Below are positions 8,872-61,570 of a stretch of 64,000 nt of DNA, one piece after another. Both the position numbers and the translations under genes were made by a program. The notes beneath the pieces were generated by a model that was not told where the DNA came from, did no database searches, and was given only the letters and a program-made list of their open reading frames with translations. The DNA is from Candidatus Haiyanarchaeum thermophilum. GTDB lineage: Archaea; Nanobdellota; Nanobdellia; JAPDLS01; Haiyanarchaeaceae. Position 1 is the stretch's first letter. Each line of letters opens with the position of its first letter. Where the stretch lies: contig JAPDLS010000001.1 of NCBI GenBank assembly GCA_025920425.1, forward strand, positions 92,288-156,287, read 5' to 3'.

Positions 8872-9383
8872 TATACCACCTTTACTCCAAATTGCTTTAC
8901 TATGAAATTTATTGCCTCCTCCTTAGTAATCCTATGAGTTTTCCCTACCTTAGCCTTTTTGTACTTCCTTCTCTCCACTCTGAAACCTGGCCTACTCAAC
9001 TTGATCGCCACACTTACTCCTACTACTCCCAAAGATGGATCATAGGCTACTCCTGGAATGTGAAGATACTCCGGAATTCCAAAGTTGATATTTCCATTGT
9101 TATCAAACCACTCACGTTTGAGTGTATTATCTACTGCCTTGAGCAATCTCGGGAGGAGCTGGAGAGCTTCCTTTCCCCTTAGAGTTACCTTTACTCCTAT
9201 TTCCAGTCCCGGCCTTATCCCAAATTCAGGGATCCTCTTCTTCGCTAAAGTTTTCACAGCTCTTTTCTGGGTAATCCTCTCGAGCAACTTTTTGCATTTC
9301 TCAAGCTTTTCTCCAGGTTCCCCCACTCCAATGTTCAATACGAGCTTTTCCACTCTGATTTCCCTCATTGGGTTCATACACAT
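8871..9383 (-). CDS. rpl5: 50S ribosomal protein L5 (uL5)
   Basis: L5-like sequence (VLNIGVGE...), about 170 aa, operon position. Confidence 0.9.
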
Positions 9384-52873: not shown

Positions 52874-53182
52874 ATGTTTTGCGAAAAATGTGGGTCAGTA
52901 CTTGTAGTGAAGGAAAAAGACGGGAAGAAGTTTTTCTATTGTAAAAGCTGTGGAAGTACTTTTGATATCACCTCAGAGCTTAAGATCAGAAGCAAATTTG
53001 GGGAGGAGGAAAGAATGATAGAATTCACTGAAAGTCTGGGGGAAAAGACCACAGCCATCTGTCCGAAGTGTGGAAATAATGAAGCCTTTTTTTGGGTACA
53101 GCAGACGAGAGCTGTAGATGAGCCACCTACCCGTTTCTATCGTTGCACCAAATGCAACTATACTTGGCGAGAATATGCTTGA
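52874..53182 (+). CDS. tfs: transcription factor S (TFIIS-like zinc ribbon)
   Basis: N-terminal CxxC...CxxC ribbon and C-terminal QQTRAVDEPPTRFYRCTKCNYTW motif. Confidence 0.8.
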   Translation: MFCEKCGSVLVVKEKDGKKFFYCKSCGSTFDITSELKIRSKFGEEERMIEFTESLGEKTTAICPKCGNNEAFFWVQQTRAVDEPPTRFYRCTKCNYTWREYA

Positions 53183-53522
53183 AAAGCTGAAGAGGGCTTT
53201 CATAGAGAAGGAAATAGGAGAAATAGATCCAGATAGAGATAACTTAGTAAGCTTCTTTGGTACTGTAGTCAACATAGATGAAACCAGTTCATCGATAATC
53301 GTAGATGATTCAAAAGCAAGGGCCACTGTAGTGATAAAAGATGAAAACACTTTGAAAGAGTTAAAGGTTGGAGAACTAGTAAGGGTGATGGGAGCAGTAA
53401 TAAAGCATGAGGAGGGATTTGAGGTGATAGCTGAGTTAGTTCAGCATATGGATGGTATGAACAGGAAGCTTCTCCAAGAATATCTGGAATTGAGAAAAAG
53501 ATTTAAAATTTCTATGTGTTGA
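53175..53522 (+). CDS. hypothetical protein, possible OB-fold
   Basis: About 115 aa, beta-rich; located between tfs and the PCNA gene; no motif support. Confidence 0.3.
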   Translation: MLEKLKRAFIEKEIGEIDPDRDNLVSFFGTVVNIDETSSSIIVDDSKARATVVIKDENTLKELKVGELVRVMGAVIKHEEGFEVIAELVQHMDGMNRKLLQEYLELRKRFKISMC

Positions 53523-58354: not shown

Positions 58355-58453
58355 TGGGCCCGGTGGGATTTGAACCCACGACCTACGGTTCTCTTAGATG
58401 TGCGGAACTCGGTCTTATAAGACCGTCGCTCCACCAGGCTAAGCTACGGGCCC
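58355..58453 (-). tRNA. tRNA-Ile with predicted anticodon UAU and a 25-nt intron at position 37/38
   Basis: Acceptor GGGCCCG/CGGGCCC, discriminator A, anticodon stem ACGGT/ACCGT, 5-nt variable loop; intron has a perfect CUUA/UAAG central helix with 3-nt bulges, leaving loop CUUAUAA. Confidence 0.7.
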
Positions 58454-58487: not shown

Positions 58488-59465
58488 TTACTCAAGTCTA
58501 CATTCATAGATCGTCTTATCCTCCCTAATCCTCAAAAATACTGGAGCCCTCAATTTCTTGTCCTTTGTAATTTCCATGCATTTCACCTCACATATATATC
58601 TTGGCTCAACGAAGACCATCTTTTCAGCCATGTTTGGTTCCTCTTCGAAGATCTCAAATGGGTTTTTATCGATTGTAATTGGTTCGAGCATTTCTTTGAG
58701 CTTAGCTAGATCACTCTCACTAAAACCGGTTCCTACTCTCCCAACATATCTCAGCTTTCCCTCATCCAAACATCCGAGCACTAGGGCTCCTAAGTATTTC
58801 TCCCGAATCCCTTCTCCTCTCGTAAAGCCACAGATCACACAGTCCACAGTCTTCGTAGCCTTTATCTTAAGCCAGTACTTAGATCTCTCTCCAATCAGAT
58901 AGGGACTGTCTATCTTCTTAGCCATTATTCCCTCGAAACCTTTCTTTGCCACTTCTTCAAAAAATTTGATCCCACCTCCTATTATGAATCTCGTAAGCTT
59001 CACCCTTTCTCCTTCAGTTACACATTCTCCTAAAATTCTCTTCCTCTCGATAAGTGGGAACTCAAGGAGAGATTTTCCATCTTTATAGAGAATATCAAAT
59101 ATGAAGAGGGTAGCCGGGCTCAATTTGGAGAGAAGTTCTATCCTTAGCTCATCACTTGTGTGTTCCCTCTCCTGCAATTTCCAAAAGTTTGGCTTCTCCC
59201 CATCCAGCACTACGATTTCTCCATCTAGAATTCCTTTATTTCCTAGGAAGGCATTAGGAAGCTCTTTTAATATTTCTGGATATCTCTTCTCAAAGAAGAG
59301 GCCTCTCCTATTGAGGAACTTAACTCTTTCCTTCTCTTTATCTATGTATACGATGGTTCTAGTTCCATCGTATTTTATTTCAAATAAATACTGCTCAGAA
59401 TCAAAAGGCCTAGCTGAAAATGCTAGCATTGGCTTTATCTTCTGATCGAAAAGATCTCCTTCCAT
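58488..59465 (-). CDS. ATP-dependent DNA ligase, small LigD/LigC-like ligase domain
   Basis: Motif I KxDGxR (EIKYDGTR) in a protein of only 325 aa; immediately downstream of the Ku gene. Confidence 0.75.
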   Translation of the reverse strand: MEGDLFDQKIKPMLAFSARPFDSEQYLFEIKYDGTRTIVYIDKEKERVKFLNRRGLFFEKRYPEILKELPNAFLGNKGILDGEIVVLDGEKPNFWKLQEREHTSDELRIELLSKLSPATLFIFDILYKDGKSLLEFPLIERKRILGECVTEGERVKLTRFIIGGGIKFFEEVAKKGFEGIMAKKIDSPYLIGERSKYWLKIKATKTVDCVICGFTRGEGIREKYLGALVLGCLDEGKLRYVGRVGTGFSESDLAKLKEMLEPITIDKNPFEIFEEEPNMAEKMVFVEPRYICEVKCMEITKDKKLRAPVFLRIREDKTIYECRLE

Positions 59466-60260
59466 TTAGCTGATCTGAGATACTTTCTTTTTCTTCTTTT
59501 CCAACAACTCCAAACTGCTTTTGAGAGCATCTACCAATGATTCAGTTACGATCTCTTCCTTCTCCTCCTTGGAAATAAATTCTCTCCCTTCCACCTTAGC
59601 TTTGATAAGTTCCTTGACCTTTTCACTAAATTCATCTTTAAACTTAGTGATATCGAATTCACTACTCAACTTCTGAATGAGCATTTGAGCTAACTTCAGT
59701 TCTTCCTCGCTTACCACTACCAACTGCTTCATTTCAGGAATCTCCTCCAGAGGCTTTACTTCAGAAAGATAATGAAGAATGTGCATAAGCAAACCATCCT
59801 TGTATGGCCTCAAGGCTACGAGATATTCCTTATTTCGCATGACTACCTTACCTATTGCCACTTTATTCGTAAGTCTTAGGGCCTGTACGAATAAGCTAAA
59901 TGCTTTGGCTCCTAGTTCCTGGGGCACCAAATAGTAGCTCTTCTCAAAGTAGATGGGATCTATTTGGGCTGGATCCACAAATTGTTTGATTTCTATTGTC
60001 TTTGTGGTCTTCAATTTAATCTTTTCAAGATCACTTCTTTCCACTACTACATACTGATCTTTGCTTATCTTGTACCCTTTCTTTATTTCATCCCACGAGA
60101 TCTCCCTATTGCAAACCGGGCACCAGCGTTTATGCTCTATAGGATGACCCTCCCTACAGAGATTCTTAAATTTTATGCCTGTACTCTCAGTAGCTACATA
60201 TACTTTAACCGGAATGTTGATCAGGGAGAAGGAAATACTCCCAGCCCAAATAGCTTTCAT
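59466..60260 (-). CDS. ku: Ku protein, bacterial-type (non-homologous end joining)
   Basis: Bacterial-Ku N-terminal signature MKAIWAGSISFSLINIPVKVYVA and core DPIYFEKSYYLVP. Confidence 0.8.
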   Translation of the reverse strand: MKAIWAGSISFSLINIPVKVYVATESTGIKFKNLCREGHPIEHKRWCPVCNREISWDEIKKGYKISKDQYVVVERSDLEKIKLKTTKTIEIKQFVDPAQIDPIYFEKSYYLVPQELGAKAFSLFVQALRLTNKVAIGKVVMRNKEYLVALRPYKDGLLMHILHYLSEVKPLEEIPEMKQLVVVSEEELKLAQMLIQKLSSEFDITKFKDEFSEKVKELIKAKVEGREFISKEEKEEIVTESLVDALKSSLELLEKKKKKVSQIS

Positions 60261-60283
60261 AAATGGATAGGTAAGTCCTTAGA

Positions 60284-60586
60284 TTAAAAACTTTTTGAAC
60301 CTTCAAGTGTAAGCATTTTATTCCCATTTTCCCTCTCATCTCTCCCAAAAAACTCTATGGATCTTCTAAAGATGCATTTCTTGTCGTTGCAATCCAAAGC
60401 CCTACTGCAATTGTAGTAATACTTCACATCTATCACTTTTCCCTCCTCCCTTTCGAACTTTTGCCTCGATAGATAAAGCATAGTTTCTCCACCATAAGAT
60501 GGACAGTAAAGCTTAGCCACGAGATTTGGGAGATGAAAATGGATCTCCTGCCCAAGAATTTCCTCTAACCCCTCGACAACCTCCAT
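60284..60586 (-). CDS. hypothetical Cys/His-containing protein upstream of ku
   Basis: 100 aa, co-directional with ku and separated by 24 nt; no motif support. Confidence 0.3.
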   Translation of the reverse strand: MEVVEGLEEILGQEIHFHLPNLVAKLYCPSYGGETMLYLSRQKFEREEGKVIDVKYYYNCSRALDCNDKKCIFRRSIEFFGRDERENGNKMLTLEGSKSF

Positions 60587-60609
60587 AAAAATAAAGAATA
60601 ACTCTACTT

Positions 60610-61524
60610 TTAAATCTTTATTCGCTTGAAGAGAGATGCTACTAAGATGGGAAGATTAATAGTAGCATCCCCGTAAACTACAGCCTGCTTCGCCCCCTCT
60701 TTTACCTTTCCCCAAGAAATTCCCTCCCTAGAGTGAGCTCCACTCAGGCTACCATCCCATTCAACCGCTGTACTAAGATATACCACATAGTCTAATCCTC
60801 CCTTAAACTGATTCCACCAGATCACATGATGTTTGGAAATTCCTCCCCCTATTACGAGGGCTCCGCTAAGCTTAGCTTTCCATACCAGCTCACTAAGCAG
60901 ATCTTCGTCCTTAAATTGATCTATTCTAAGTTTCTTCCCAAATTCCCAGATATGGTATCCTACAGCCCCATCTGTAAGACCAGGGATTATCATAGGTATC
61001 CTATTCCTGAAACACCAGTAAAGGATCGAGTCCTCATTTCCTATAAACTCTCCTAGTTTCCAGCAGAGCTCATAGGTGCTAAGCTCCTTATCAACCGTTA
61101 ATCCTTTGATGAACTCTCTCATCTTTTCCTCAATAATTATTCCATAGCTCTCATTTGGAATGAAGACGTTTCCCAATCTGCAAATTCCCTTCCTCCTCAA
61201 TTCAGAGTCATCAGTAAAAAAGCTCCCGTGAAAATACTCCTTGAAACTTCTAGCTAGATCATGATCAAGAGTACCACATGTGGTAATTATCACATCGAAC
61301 AATTTTCTCCTCACGAGTTCTCTTATTATTCCCCTACACCCAGTAGCTATTATGCATGCTGGAAAAGATAGAAATTTCAAGCAATCCTTTTGCTTTATCA
61401 TCTCTTCCAAAATATCTACAGCTTCTCCAAGTTCCTTTGCCATAAATCCTCCGGAAGCCTTCAGCTCCCTCAATAACTCGTCCACATCATGTTTTATCTC
61501 AATATCCTTCACTGGAATTTGCAT
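60610..61524 (-). CDS. dys: deoxyhypusine synthase
   Basis: Conserved blocks DVIITTCG, IPGLTDGAVG, GGGISKHH and DGSLSGA. Confidence 0.8.
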   Translation of the reverse strand: MQIPVKDIEIKHDVDELLRELKASGGFMAKELGEAVDILEEMIKQKDCLKFLSFPACIIATGCRGIIRELVRRKLFDVIITTCGTLDHDLARSFKEYFHGSFFTDDSELRRKGICRLGNVFIPNESYGIIIEEKMREFIKGLTVDKELSTYELCWKLGEFIGNEDSILYWCFRNRIPMIIPGLTDGAVGYHIWEFGKKLRIDQFKDEDLLSELVWKAKLSGALVIGGGISKHHVIWWNQFKGGLDYVVYLSTAVEWDGSLSGAHSREGISWGKVKEGAKQAVVYGDATINLPILVASLFKRIKI

Positions 61525-61570
61525 AGAATCCCAAAACCCTTCTAGATTTAAAAAGCTTGAGATAGATATC

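Follow-up and report, generated by a model that had tools for sequence, protein, structure and literature searches.

The closest described counterparts of the locus analysed here are the Ku and LigD systems of bacteria such as Mycobacterium tuberculosis and Bacillus subtilis (YkoV/YkoU) and the end-joining system of the archaeon Methanocella paludicola (Bartlett et al., PMC4797286). In bacterial LigD the ligase is usually fused to a polymerase domain (Pol) and often also to a 3'-phosphoesterase domain (PE), and LigD ligases favour ribonucleotide-terminated nicks made by Pol. PMC9638933 describes the C-terminus of bacterial Ku as the region that recruits LigD. In Methanocella, one operon encodes PE, the primase-polymerase and the ligase, and Ku, Lig, Pol and PE, each a separate protein, have been shown to cooperate; the archaeal primase PriSL also mediates end joining. 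Surveys of NHEJ and Ku describe archaeal Ku as rare, with 10 to 19 genomes, and in that of Sharda et al. (2020, PMC7719229) Ku never occurs without a LigD-type LIG domain, for example in Archaeoglobus, in a minority of archaeal genomes. DPANN lineages go unmentioned in the surveys consulted (PMC7719229 and two others).

The locus lies in a 64-kb stretch of DNA (hereafter the window, whose coordinates are used throughout) from the hyperthermophile Candidatus Haiyanarchaeum thermophilum, a hot-spring member of the DPANN archaea that belongs to the order Jingweiarchaeales. The initial annotation had proposed a bacterial-type Ku gene and a small ligase gene in an archaeal context, with a 100-aa ORF upstream, and all three ORFs are indeed found on the minus strand: the ligase gene (lig) at 58488..59465, the Ku gene (ku) at 59466..60260 and the 100-aa ORF (orf100) at 60284..60586. 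The archaeal context is borne out by the source organism and, within the window, by ribosomal and RNA polymerase operons of archaeal type and genes for PCNA and for deoxyhypusine synthase. The ku-lig block recurs unchanged on 19 contigs that come from several independent assemblies, and we therefore reject an assembly artefact. The pair is already known: NCBI independently names the two genes "Ku protein" and "non-homologous end-joining DNA ligase", and a table in the genome paper lists Ku (YkoV) in 14 of 14 Jingweiarchaeales MAGs, with K01971 (LigD) beside it.

The 264-aa product of ku is a prokaryotic-type Ku. Residues 2-250 span positions 1-259 of the 259 positions of TIGR02772 (Ku_bact; 277.3 bits against a curated cutoff of 150, E=1.1e-82) and residues 10-189 match Pfam PF02735 (172 bits against a cutoff of 25, E=1.5e-50), so that the protein belongs to both families with a full-length core; the bacterial Ku signature first noticed in the translation is thus confirmed, and a non-Ku fold is excluded. 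Its best solved relative is B. subtilis 9VNQ (E=4.6e-49), and M. tuberculosis 8V53 is also matched (E=3e-40). The protein consists of a core beta-barrel/bridge domain, a C-terminal LVDALKSSLE motif and a KKKKK tail, the latter two aligning with the DLMxALxxS motif and Lys-rich tail of bacterial and archaeal Ku, and as a single-domain protein it falls within the 250-300 aa class that has a minimal C-terminus and a basic tail. The Ku core, the C-terminal motif and the adjacency of ku and ligase genes are all features shared with bacterial Ku and LigD systems; bacterial Ku proteins are about 31-43% identical to the one encoded here. By analogy with them, the protein would form a homodimeric end-binding ring.

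The adjoining gene encodes a stand-alone ATP-dependent ligase of 325 aa, in which Pfam finds adenylation and OB domains alone (DNA_ligase_A_M, PF01068, 2.3e-39; DNA_ligase_A_C, PF04679, 2.2e-29), with no N-terminal DNA-binding domain, Pol or PE. It scores above the equivalog-domain cutoff of TIGR02779 (NHEJ_ligase_lig; 261.4 bits against 227.75, E=9.8e-78), and it matches only the ligase portion of the multidomain LigD models TIGR02776 (204.6 bits, cutoff 373.2) and PRK09632 (238.9 bits, cutoff 989). It aligns end to end with 1VS0, the ligase domain of M. tuberculosis LigD, with all motifs (E=1.4e-41; residues 9-319 on 1VS0 residues 8-304 of 310). Motifs I, III, IIIa, IV, V and VI are all intact and are conserved among 21 aligned ligases. 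The motif I originally read as KYDGTR is present as EIKYDGTR (residues 29-36; 59358..59381, minus strand) and aligns with EGKWDGYR of 1VS0, its K and DG being at least 90% conserved in the same 21 ligases; Lys31 (codon 59373-59375) is the lysine predicted to be adenylated. The protein keeps a length of about 315-332 aa both across 18 related loci and among 120 of the 120 closest relatives listed, every one of which is a stand-alone two-domain ligase lacking Pol and PE.

Could such a small enzyme be a general or replicative ligase, or a back-up nick-sealing enzyme, beside a Ku that serves in end protection or as an AP/dRP-lyase? Bacterial Ku does process abasic sites (PMC4245934), the Haiyanarchaeum genomes are the most compact of their group (genome paper), and the archaeal replicative ligases 3GDE and 2CFM match the ligase (E about 1e-40 to 1e-41) nearly as well as the M. 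tuberculosis LigD domain does. That similarity, however, extends only over the C-terminal part of the replicative enzymes (about residues 250-540), and the protein is far shorter than archaeal replicative ligases of about 550-600 aa. PF04675, their N-terminal domain, has no match in its 325 residues, and the dnl1 model (TIGR00574, Lig1/Cdc9) is reached at only 183.4 bits, under its cutoff of 217.8. Taken with the NHEJ-ligase score, the full-length alignment to 1VS0 and the conserved size, these results exclude a fragment of the replicative ligase. It is true that no PF04675 Lig1-type ligase is encoded elsewhere in the 64-kb window, but the window is a small fraction of the genome, and related Parvarchaeales MAGs encode a Lig1 of about 590 aa (K10747) as a separate enzyme. 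The strict linkage and translational coupling of the ligase to Ku in many lineages also argue against a general role, and we consider that reading unlikely.

The linkage is tight in this locus. The Ku stop codon directly abuts the ligase ATG (...AGC TAA ATG GAA...), which substantiates the proposal that the two genes follow each other without a gap; among 17 related loci, 13 have a Ku-ligase spacer between -4 and +87 nt. Since the organism is archaeal, we analysed the position of TATA boxes rather than scanning for sigma-70 promoters. Over the window, TATA-like hexamers peak at -28 to -32 from gene starts, occurring there in 20 of 71 genes, compared with 1 of 71 for the control interval. A TATA-like box (TTTTTAAT; 60283..60290, minus strand) starts 28-29 nt 5' of the ku ATG, where it overlaps the stop codon of orf100, and none precedes lig; in a related locus (L022) ku has such a box at -30/-29 although the upstream gene differs. 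The box at 60283..60290 is a putative promoter of a leaderless ku-lig transcript. The basis of this promoter and bicistron model is the motif-position statistic, on which it is the most likely arrangement. An intron-containing tRNA gene (58355..58453, minus strand; ARAGORN; Rfam RF00005, 60.5 bits, E=7e-13), whose anticodon loop carries a 26-nt insertion, starts 34 nt beyond the ligase stop and is the 3' boundary of the unit. Antisense ORFs within ku and lig (58558-58902, 59101-59445 and 59964-60287, all on the plus strand) were also considered as genes and rejected, their apparent conservation being a shadow of the sense genes.

On the 5' side, orf100 and the deoxyhypusine synthase gene dhs (60610..61524; PF01916, E=1.2e-102; NF002294, 423.5 bits) lie upstream on the same strand. 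The initial annotation allowed that orf100, which it placed 24 nt from ku, may belong to the same unit; the spacer is in fact 23 nt (60261-60283). An operon of orf100-ku-lig, or of dhs-orf100-ku-lig, with ORF100 as a new zinc-binding end-joining accessory, would fit the common strand and the 23-nt spacers, the adjacency of dhs and ku-lig in two further loci (L021 and L022), and the four Cys and two His residues (H16, H18, C28, C60, C66 and C71) conserved in the three known homologues of ORF100. The comparative evidence points the other way. A search of 5.8 billion proteins returned only two relatives of this genus-restricted orphan, and orf100 is missing from 19 of 20 related archaeal Ku loci. 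One relative is 65% identical on a contig where Ku is 91% identical, a sign of much faster evolution, and in L022 an AlaX-like gene separates orf100 from ku, orf100 there being 24 nt after dhs and also frameshifted. In the window orf100, like ku, is preceded by a TATA-like box of its own at the genome-typical position of -29. It has no match in Pfam, NCBIfam, PHROGs or PADLOC, and its AF2 model, built from three sequences, is unusable (pLDDT 58.8, with residues 1-33 below 50). An accessory role thus appears improbable, and orf100 is probably a neighbour that stands outside the NHEJ unit. The dhs gene, with its own TATA-like box at -29, is 5' context and no NHEJ component.

With orf100 set aside, the unit contains two genes, and the claim that the window lacks LigD polymerase and phosphoesterase domains stands. 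PF21686 (Pol) and PF13298 (PE) are absent from the Pfam annotation of the whole 64-kb window. Pol and PE queries taken from the Sphingobacterium (L028) and Desulfomonilaceae (L033) proteins, run as phmmer, tblastn and a small two-sequence PolDom HMM, found no LigD Pol or PE in the window, whether in its ORFs or in its six frames, nor within 10 kb of Ku in 20 related archaeal loci, and recovered nothing but the bacterial loci themselves; the PE tblastn, with a single bacterial query domain, is of limited sensitivity. Hence neither an NHEJ polymerase nor a LigD-type 3'-phosphoesterase is encoded near ku and lig in the window or these loci, nor is either domain part of the ligase polypeptide. Because the characterised NHEJ systems possess both activities, the pathway may be incomplete or may work differently: with Pol and PE missing from the neighbourhood, end processing would be absent, encoded elsewhere or supplied by general enzymes.

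Several observations bear on the origin of the pair. Both proteins have their closest relatives in archaea, for the most part in Aenigmatarchaeota and other DPANN lineages; DPANN Ku proteins are 57-91% identical to the one here, against at most 43% for the best bacterial Ku. A Ku gene followed by a ligase gene of about 320 codons is kept in 18 of 21 archaeal loci, and NJ trees of Ku and ligase have broadly matching topologies. The GC content of ku-lig (0.40) and its GC3 match those of housekeeping genes; a composition like that of the rest of the genome argues against a recent import from bacteria. The flanks are core genes (dhs, a P-type ATPase gene and PCNA) with no integrase or phage genes among them, and PHROGs and PADLOC gave zero matches at the locus. 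On these features of the sequence, the ku-lig pair in this locus is chromosomal and native. That it is a recent bacterial acquisition, or the cargo of a virus or integrative element beside the tRNA gene, is therefore very unlikely, even though Ku is often transferred according to the literature, is absent from Parvarchaeales MAGs of the sister order (genome paper), and is listed with the ligase as putative HGT in the HGTector table of the genome paper: the donors named there are Thaumarchaeota and Archaeoglobales, an older transfer between archaea is compatible with the native module we favour, and every one of the 14 Jingweiarchaeales MAGs carries the pair.

We therefore regard the locus, with considerable confidence, as a native two-gene NHEJ module, most likely a ku-lig bicistron, with a predicted role in end joining. 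As we envisage it, a Ku homodimer ring would thread onto and bridge the ends of a double-strand break, and its conserved C-terminal arm would bring in the stand-alone LigD-type ligase, which would adenylate itself on Lys31 and then seal the ends. Both proteins would be made from one leaderless bicistronic message that starts downstream of the TATA-like box 28-29 nt 5' of ku, translation of the ligase occurring by termination-reinitiation at the TAA-ATG junction. Processing of the ends might be absent altogether, compatible ends being joined directly, or might be provided by genes elsewhere or by general enzymes such as PriSL. Such joining in vivo, like the contact between Ku and ligase, is predicted by analogy with the systems characterised in bacteria and in Methanocella.

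The locus itself matters little, as its genes are correctly named in GenBank and listed in the genome paper. Its wider interest lies in the company it keeps. Archaeal Ku-ligase pairs, most of them of DPANN origin, are very numerous in metagenomes and all show the same reduced layout of two proteins, and the description of the pair as rare in archaea, made in the initial annotation, holds for the cultured genomes of published surveys but fails for DPANN MAGs, where the pair is common. We put forward, tentatively and as a proposition whose chances are a little short of even, that a minimal Ku-ligase module, long resident and inherited as a pair, is common to DPANN archaea (Aenigmatarchaeota, Jingweiarchaeales, Micrarchaeia, Undinarchaeota and others) and joins ends without a dedicated LigD Pol or PE. 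This module may make use of the replicative primase or, in Aenigmatarchaeota, of a linked nuclease of the bifunctional-nuclease-domain (BFN) family. If so, Ku-dependent end joining would be far commoner in Archaea than cultured-genome surveys indicate, and would be retained even by highly streamlined symbiont genomes. That a hyperthermophile whose genome is among the most compact of its group retains Ku and ligase beside RadA and Rad50 suggests selection for template-independent break repair, and the two proteins offer a small, thermostable candidate end-joining system that is open to biochemistry.

In the related loci of Aenigmatarchaeota (L007-L016), Ku is an orthologue of ours (57-64% identity), and the ligase that follows it, of about 322 aa, is orthologous too. 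Seven of these loci also carry, downstream of the ligase gene and on its strand, a gene for a PF02577 BFN protein of about 175-200 aa, where the window has the tRNA gene instead; the BFN gene comes directly after the ligase in four of the seven, and one of the seven is cut by a contig end. The BFN protein is a possible end-processing partner in Aenigmatarchaeota. A conserved 365-aa radical-SAM gene 5' of Ku in the same phylum was considered as a repair partner of the SplB (spore-photoproduct lyase) type, splB being named in the genome paper, and was set aside because NCBIfam gave it only weak matches of the glycyl-radical-activase or NrdG type.

Set against the described systems, the locus shares its Ku type and a ligase homologous throughout to the M. 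tuberculosis LigD ligase domain with bacteria, but its ligase is reduced to adenylation and OB domains where the bacterial enzyme is usually a fusion such as the 830-aa Sphingobacterium LigD. It resembles that of Methanocella in joining a prokaryotic-type archaeal Ku to a stand-alone ligase, and differs in having Ku and ligase only in place of a set of four cooperating proteins. And whereas Sharda et al. (PMC7719229) found the pair in 10 of 243 archaeal genomes, the pair described here belongs to a large, mostly DPANN clade of metagenomic sequences that takes in Aenigmatarchaeota, Jingweiarchaeales, Micrarchaeia and Undinarchaeota.

Three minus-strand open reading frames occupy exactly the coordinates that the initial annotation gave them: a 325-aa ligase gene (lig, 58488–59465), a 264-aa Ku gene (ku, 59466–60260) and a 100-aa Cys/His-containing ORF (here orf100, 60284–60586). 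At the ku–lig junction (AGC-TAA-ATG-GAA) the TAA stop codon directly abuts the ligase ATG, so the two genes are indeed without a gap, and the predicted ligase motif I, KYDGTR, is found within EIKYDGTR at ligase residues 29–36. The spacer between orf100 and ku is 23 nt rather than the 24 nt first reported. Nineteen contigs in NCBI, ENA, JGI and Logan assemblies carry an identical block, which rules out an artefact of assembly.

Profile searches leave the first protein a Ku, as proposed, and not a non-Ku fold, with hits to Pfam PF02735 (E = 1.5e-50) and, over nearly its whole length, to the NCBIfam equivalog TIGR02772 'Ku_bact' (277 bits; cutoff 150). Among solved structures it comes closest to B. 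subtilis Ku (9VNQ, E = 4.6e-49), followed by M. tuberculosis Ku (8V53, E = 3e-40). The C-terminus, LVDALKSSLE followed by KKKKK, lines up with a motif conserved at the C-terminal end of bacterial Ku proteins and with their basic tail, a region that PMC9638933 describes as an arm binding DNA and recruiting LigD. Residues 35–50 (60111–60158, minus strand) hold a C-P-x-C pair common to archaeal Ku (C47 in 20/20, C50 in 19/20) that is preceded by His/Cys residues, in this protein C35, H39 and H43, and looks like a probable zinc-binding knuckle. A CxxC is also present in B. subtilis Ku; the second Cys is absent from all six bacterial Ku proteins aligned.

The ligase contains only an adenylation domain (PF01068) and an OB domain (PF04679). 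Each of its six nucleotidyltransferase motifs is intact, and all six are conserved when 21 related ligases are aligned. The ligase domain of M. tuberculosis LigD (1VS0) matches it end to end (E = 1.4e-41); archaeal replicative ligases align with it only via their C-terminal two-thirds, with nearly equal E-values. The window ligase scores above the cutoff of the NHEJ-ligase equivalog-domain model TIGR02779 (261.4; cutoff 227.75) and below that of the replicative-ligase model TIGR00574 (183.4; cutoff 217.8), and is thus a small NHEJ-type ligase and not a fragment of a replicative one. With both Ku fold and ligase type checked, the original reading of the two genes as an NHEJ-like pair therefore stands.

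Exact-sequence look-up identifies the source of the proteins as Candidatus Haiyanarchaeum thermophilum (Archaea; Nanobdellota (DPANN); Jingweiarchaeales). NCBI names the products 'Ku protein' and 'non-homologous end-joining DNA ligase', with orf100 a 'hypothetical protein'. In the paper describing Jingweiarchaeales MAGs (PMC10134863), Table S6 places YkoV/Ku (arCOG10146) in 14/14 Jingweiarchaeales MAGs and in none of the Parvarchaeales MAGs, and Table S8, an HGTector output, contains Ku (K10979) and the adjoining gene as LigD (K01971). Given these names and tables, the pair at this locus was correctly recognised but is already known, having been annotated and tabulated before. Supplement tables of the same paper also record RadA and SbcC/Rad50, so homologous recombination is retained, and the authors infer the genus to be hyperthermophilic, with the most compact genomes of the group.

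The suggestion that orf100 belongs to the ku–lig unit fares less well. Searches with it against Pfam, NCBIfam, PHROGs and PADLOC gave no match, 19 of 20 related archaeal Ku loci lack it, and at the related locus L022, where it is frameshifted (8972–9297; either an assembly error or a pseudogene), an AlaX-like gene separates it from ku. Besides a truncated copy of orf100, the protein database yields a single relative; it is 65% identical, compared with 91% for the Ku encoded on the same contig. Wherever it is seen, it sits 23–24 nt (24 nt in L022) after a deoxyhypusine synthase gene (dhs; 60610–61524, minus strand, in the window). Its conserved residues H16, H18, C28, C60, C66 and C71 suggest metal binding; an AlphaFold2 model (mean pLDDT 58.8) was too poor for use. 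We conclude that orf100 is a real gene, specific to its lineage and evolving fast, and that it is probably an orphan neighbour outside the ku–lig unit; its linkage to dhs is no weaker than that to ku. The dhs gene itself adjoins ku–lig in three lineages in differing order: dhs–orf100–ku–lig in the window (58488–61524), dhs–orf100–alaX–ku–lig in L022 (8000–11803) and ku–lig–dhs in the related locus L021 (913–3658).

When the starts of TATA-like hexamers were recorded relative to the start codons of 71 non-overlapping window ORFs, they formed a sharp peak at −28 to −32, and a box began between −34 and −22 in 20 of the 71 genes versus one in an equal-width control interval. The position of this peak suggests that leaderless transcription may be widespread in the window and that, the genome being very compact, many promoters would overlap the stop codon of the gene before them. 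Each of dhs, orf100 and ku has a TATA-like box at −29/−28 (minus-strand examples at ~61548–61554, 60610–60616 and 60283–60290), and lig has none. In L022 the gene upstream of Ku encodes an AlaX-type editing protein, yet the Ku box is kept at −30/−29. A TATA-like hexamer lies 18–40 nt upstream of Ku in 15 of 20 related archaeal loci (eight starting at −34 to −22) but upstream of the ligase in only 2 of 17. The most economical reading of these patterns is that ku and lig would form a bicistron with its own promoter.

Beyond the ligase stop codon lies a tRNA gene (58355–58453, minus strand; Rfam RF00005, 60.5 bits) whose anticodon loop is interrupted by a 26-nt intron and which has a TTTAAAA box ~32 nt upstream of its 5' end. 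ARAGORN gave it no type; judging from the loop sequence CUUAUA, the anticodon would be UAU (Ile, decoding AUA), an uncommon choice since most archaea use a modified CAU. Elsewhere in the window, just upstream of PCNA, a 134-aa OB-fold protein (53118–53522, plus strand) weakly matches Ten1, RPA3 and tRNA_anti-codon; PMC10134863 annotates a gene two positions after PCNA in a related MAG as arCOG05741, 'ssDNA binding protein RPA14'.

Several lines of evidence argue against a recent import from bacteria. The best 120 Ku relatives among 5.8 billion proteins are 49–91% identical, and the named entries among them are all archaeal, mostly Aenigmatarchaeota with Jingweiarchaeum, Micrarchaeia and Nitrosomirales. 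A genome scan with Ku returned 20 archaeal loci at 45–84% identity (those labelled beyond 'uncultured archaeon' being Aenigmatarchaeota, Undinarchaeota, Woesearchaeota, Hadarchaeota and Hydrothermarchaeota) and bacterial loci, none of them above 43% across most of the protein. The best 120 ligase relatives are all stand-alone proteins of 282–335 aa with an adenylation domain, and with an OB domain in all but one truncated entry; none carries a Pol, PE or N-terminal DNA-binding domain, and those named belong to Aenigmatarchaeota, Parvarchaeota, Micrarchaeia and one Halobacteria MAG. Ku is followed by a same-strand ligase in 18 of 21 archaeal loci, the window included, and in the remaining three the contig ends at or within ~200 nt of the Ku gene. 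In rough neighbour-joining trees, built without support values and with thin, non-random bacterial sampling, all archaeal Ku proteins form a single clade, as do all archaeal ligases; the window groups with L022 in either tree, and the topologies are broadly similar. The GC/GC3 values of ku (0.40/0.46) and lig (0.40/0.42) match those of housekeeping genes. This sequence evidence argues for the pair having long been resident as a unit within archaea, largely DPANN.

Within the archaea, ancient transfer among DPANN is as plausible as vertical descent with loss, since the pair is lacking in Parvarchaeales and the same hot springs (DRTY-6 and JZ sites) also yielded several of the Aenigmatarchaeota MAGs. 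As donors, Table S8 of PMC10134863 gives Thaumarchaeota (Ku) and Archaeoglobales (ligase). In current databases both proteins find their nearest relatives in other DPANN archaea, several of these from those springs (Ku identity 57–64% for Aenigmatarchaeota against 53% for Nitrosomirales), so these assignments look out of date, out-ranked by DPANN sequences. In Aenigmatarchaeota loci (L007–L023; for example L009, 7264–9984) a conserved gene order is seen, CTP synthase, a 365-aa radical-SAM protein, Ku and ligase, the radical-SAM gene mostly ending ~5–25 nt ahead of the Ku start; its product was considered as SplB and rejected, being activase-like.

The description of such pairs as rare in archaea agrees with published surveys but not with present metagenome data. 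Ku with a LIG domain was found in 10 of 243 archaeal genomes (PMC7719229), OrthoDB has 19 archaeal Ku proteins, those listed in PMC11936186 all coming from euryarchaeal methanogens or Archaeoglobus, and complete NHEJ has been called 'relatively rare' in archaea (bioRxiv 2023.09.30.560322); DPANN go unmentioned in all three surveys. The one mildly new element lies outside the locus itself: a uniform minimal Ku–Lig module, widespread in DPANN, that NHEJ surveys have overlooked.

The sequences themselves establish family membership, intact motifs, close coupling of the two genes and conservation of the pair. By homology to characterised bacterial and Methanocella systems, we infer that a Ku dimer would bind and bridge broken ends, that its C-terminal arm would recruit the ligase, and that the ligase, adenylated on Lys31, would then seal the break. 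As the initial annotation had stated, the window encodes no LigD primase-polymerase (Pol) or 3'-phosphoesterase (PE). Its Pfam annotation (precomputed gene matches on matching contigs plus direct scans of the remainder, E up to 1) contains no PF21686 (Pol), PF13298 (PE) or PF04675 (replicative-ligase N-terminal domain). Further queries were the Pol and PE domains of a Sphingobacterium LigD (a fusion protein of 830 aa) and a PolDom that stands alone in Desulfomonilaceae. Run with phmmer, tblastn in six frames and a small HMM on the window and on every fetched locus, they matched only the bacterial loci themselves, an absence that also takes in up to 10 kb of flanking sequence at Ku in the 20 related archaeal loci. 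Without these activities nearby, either only directly ligatable ends would be joined, or partners would be encoded elsewhere, or general enzymes would substitute. In Saccharolobus the archaeal replicative primase PriSL mediates microhomology-dependent end joining (PMC12019639).

A candidate end-processing partner for a DPANN NHEJ module is a bifunctional-nuclease-domain protein (PF02577, ~175–200 aa) encoded on the same strand downstream of the ligase in seven Aenigmatarchaeota-type loci (L009, 11890–12453; L007, L008, L010, L012, L015 and L016), directly after it in four; one of the seven is cut by a contig end. The window encodes no homologue of it; the next gene after the ligase there, 34 nt downstream, is the tRNA gene with the intron.
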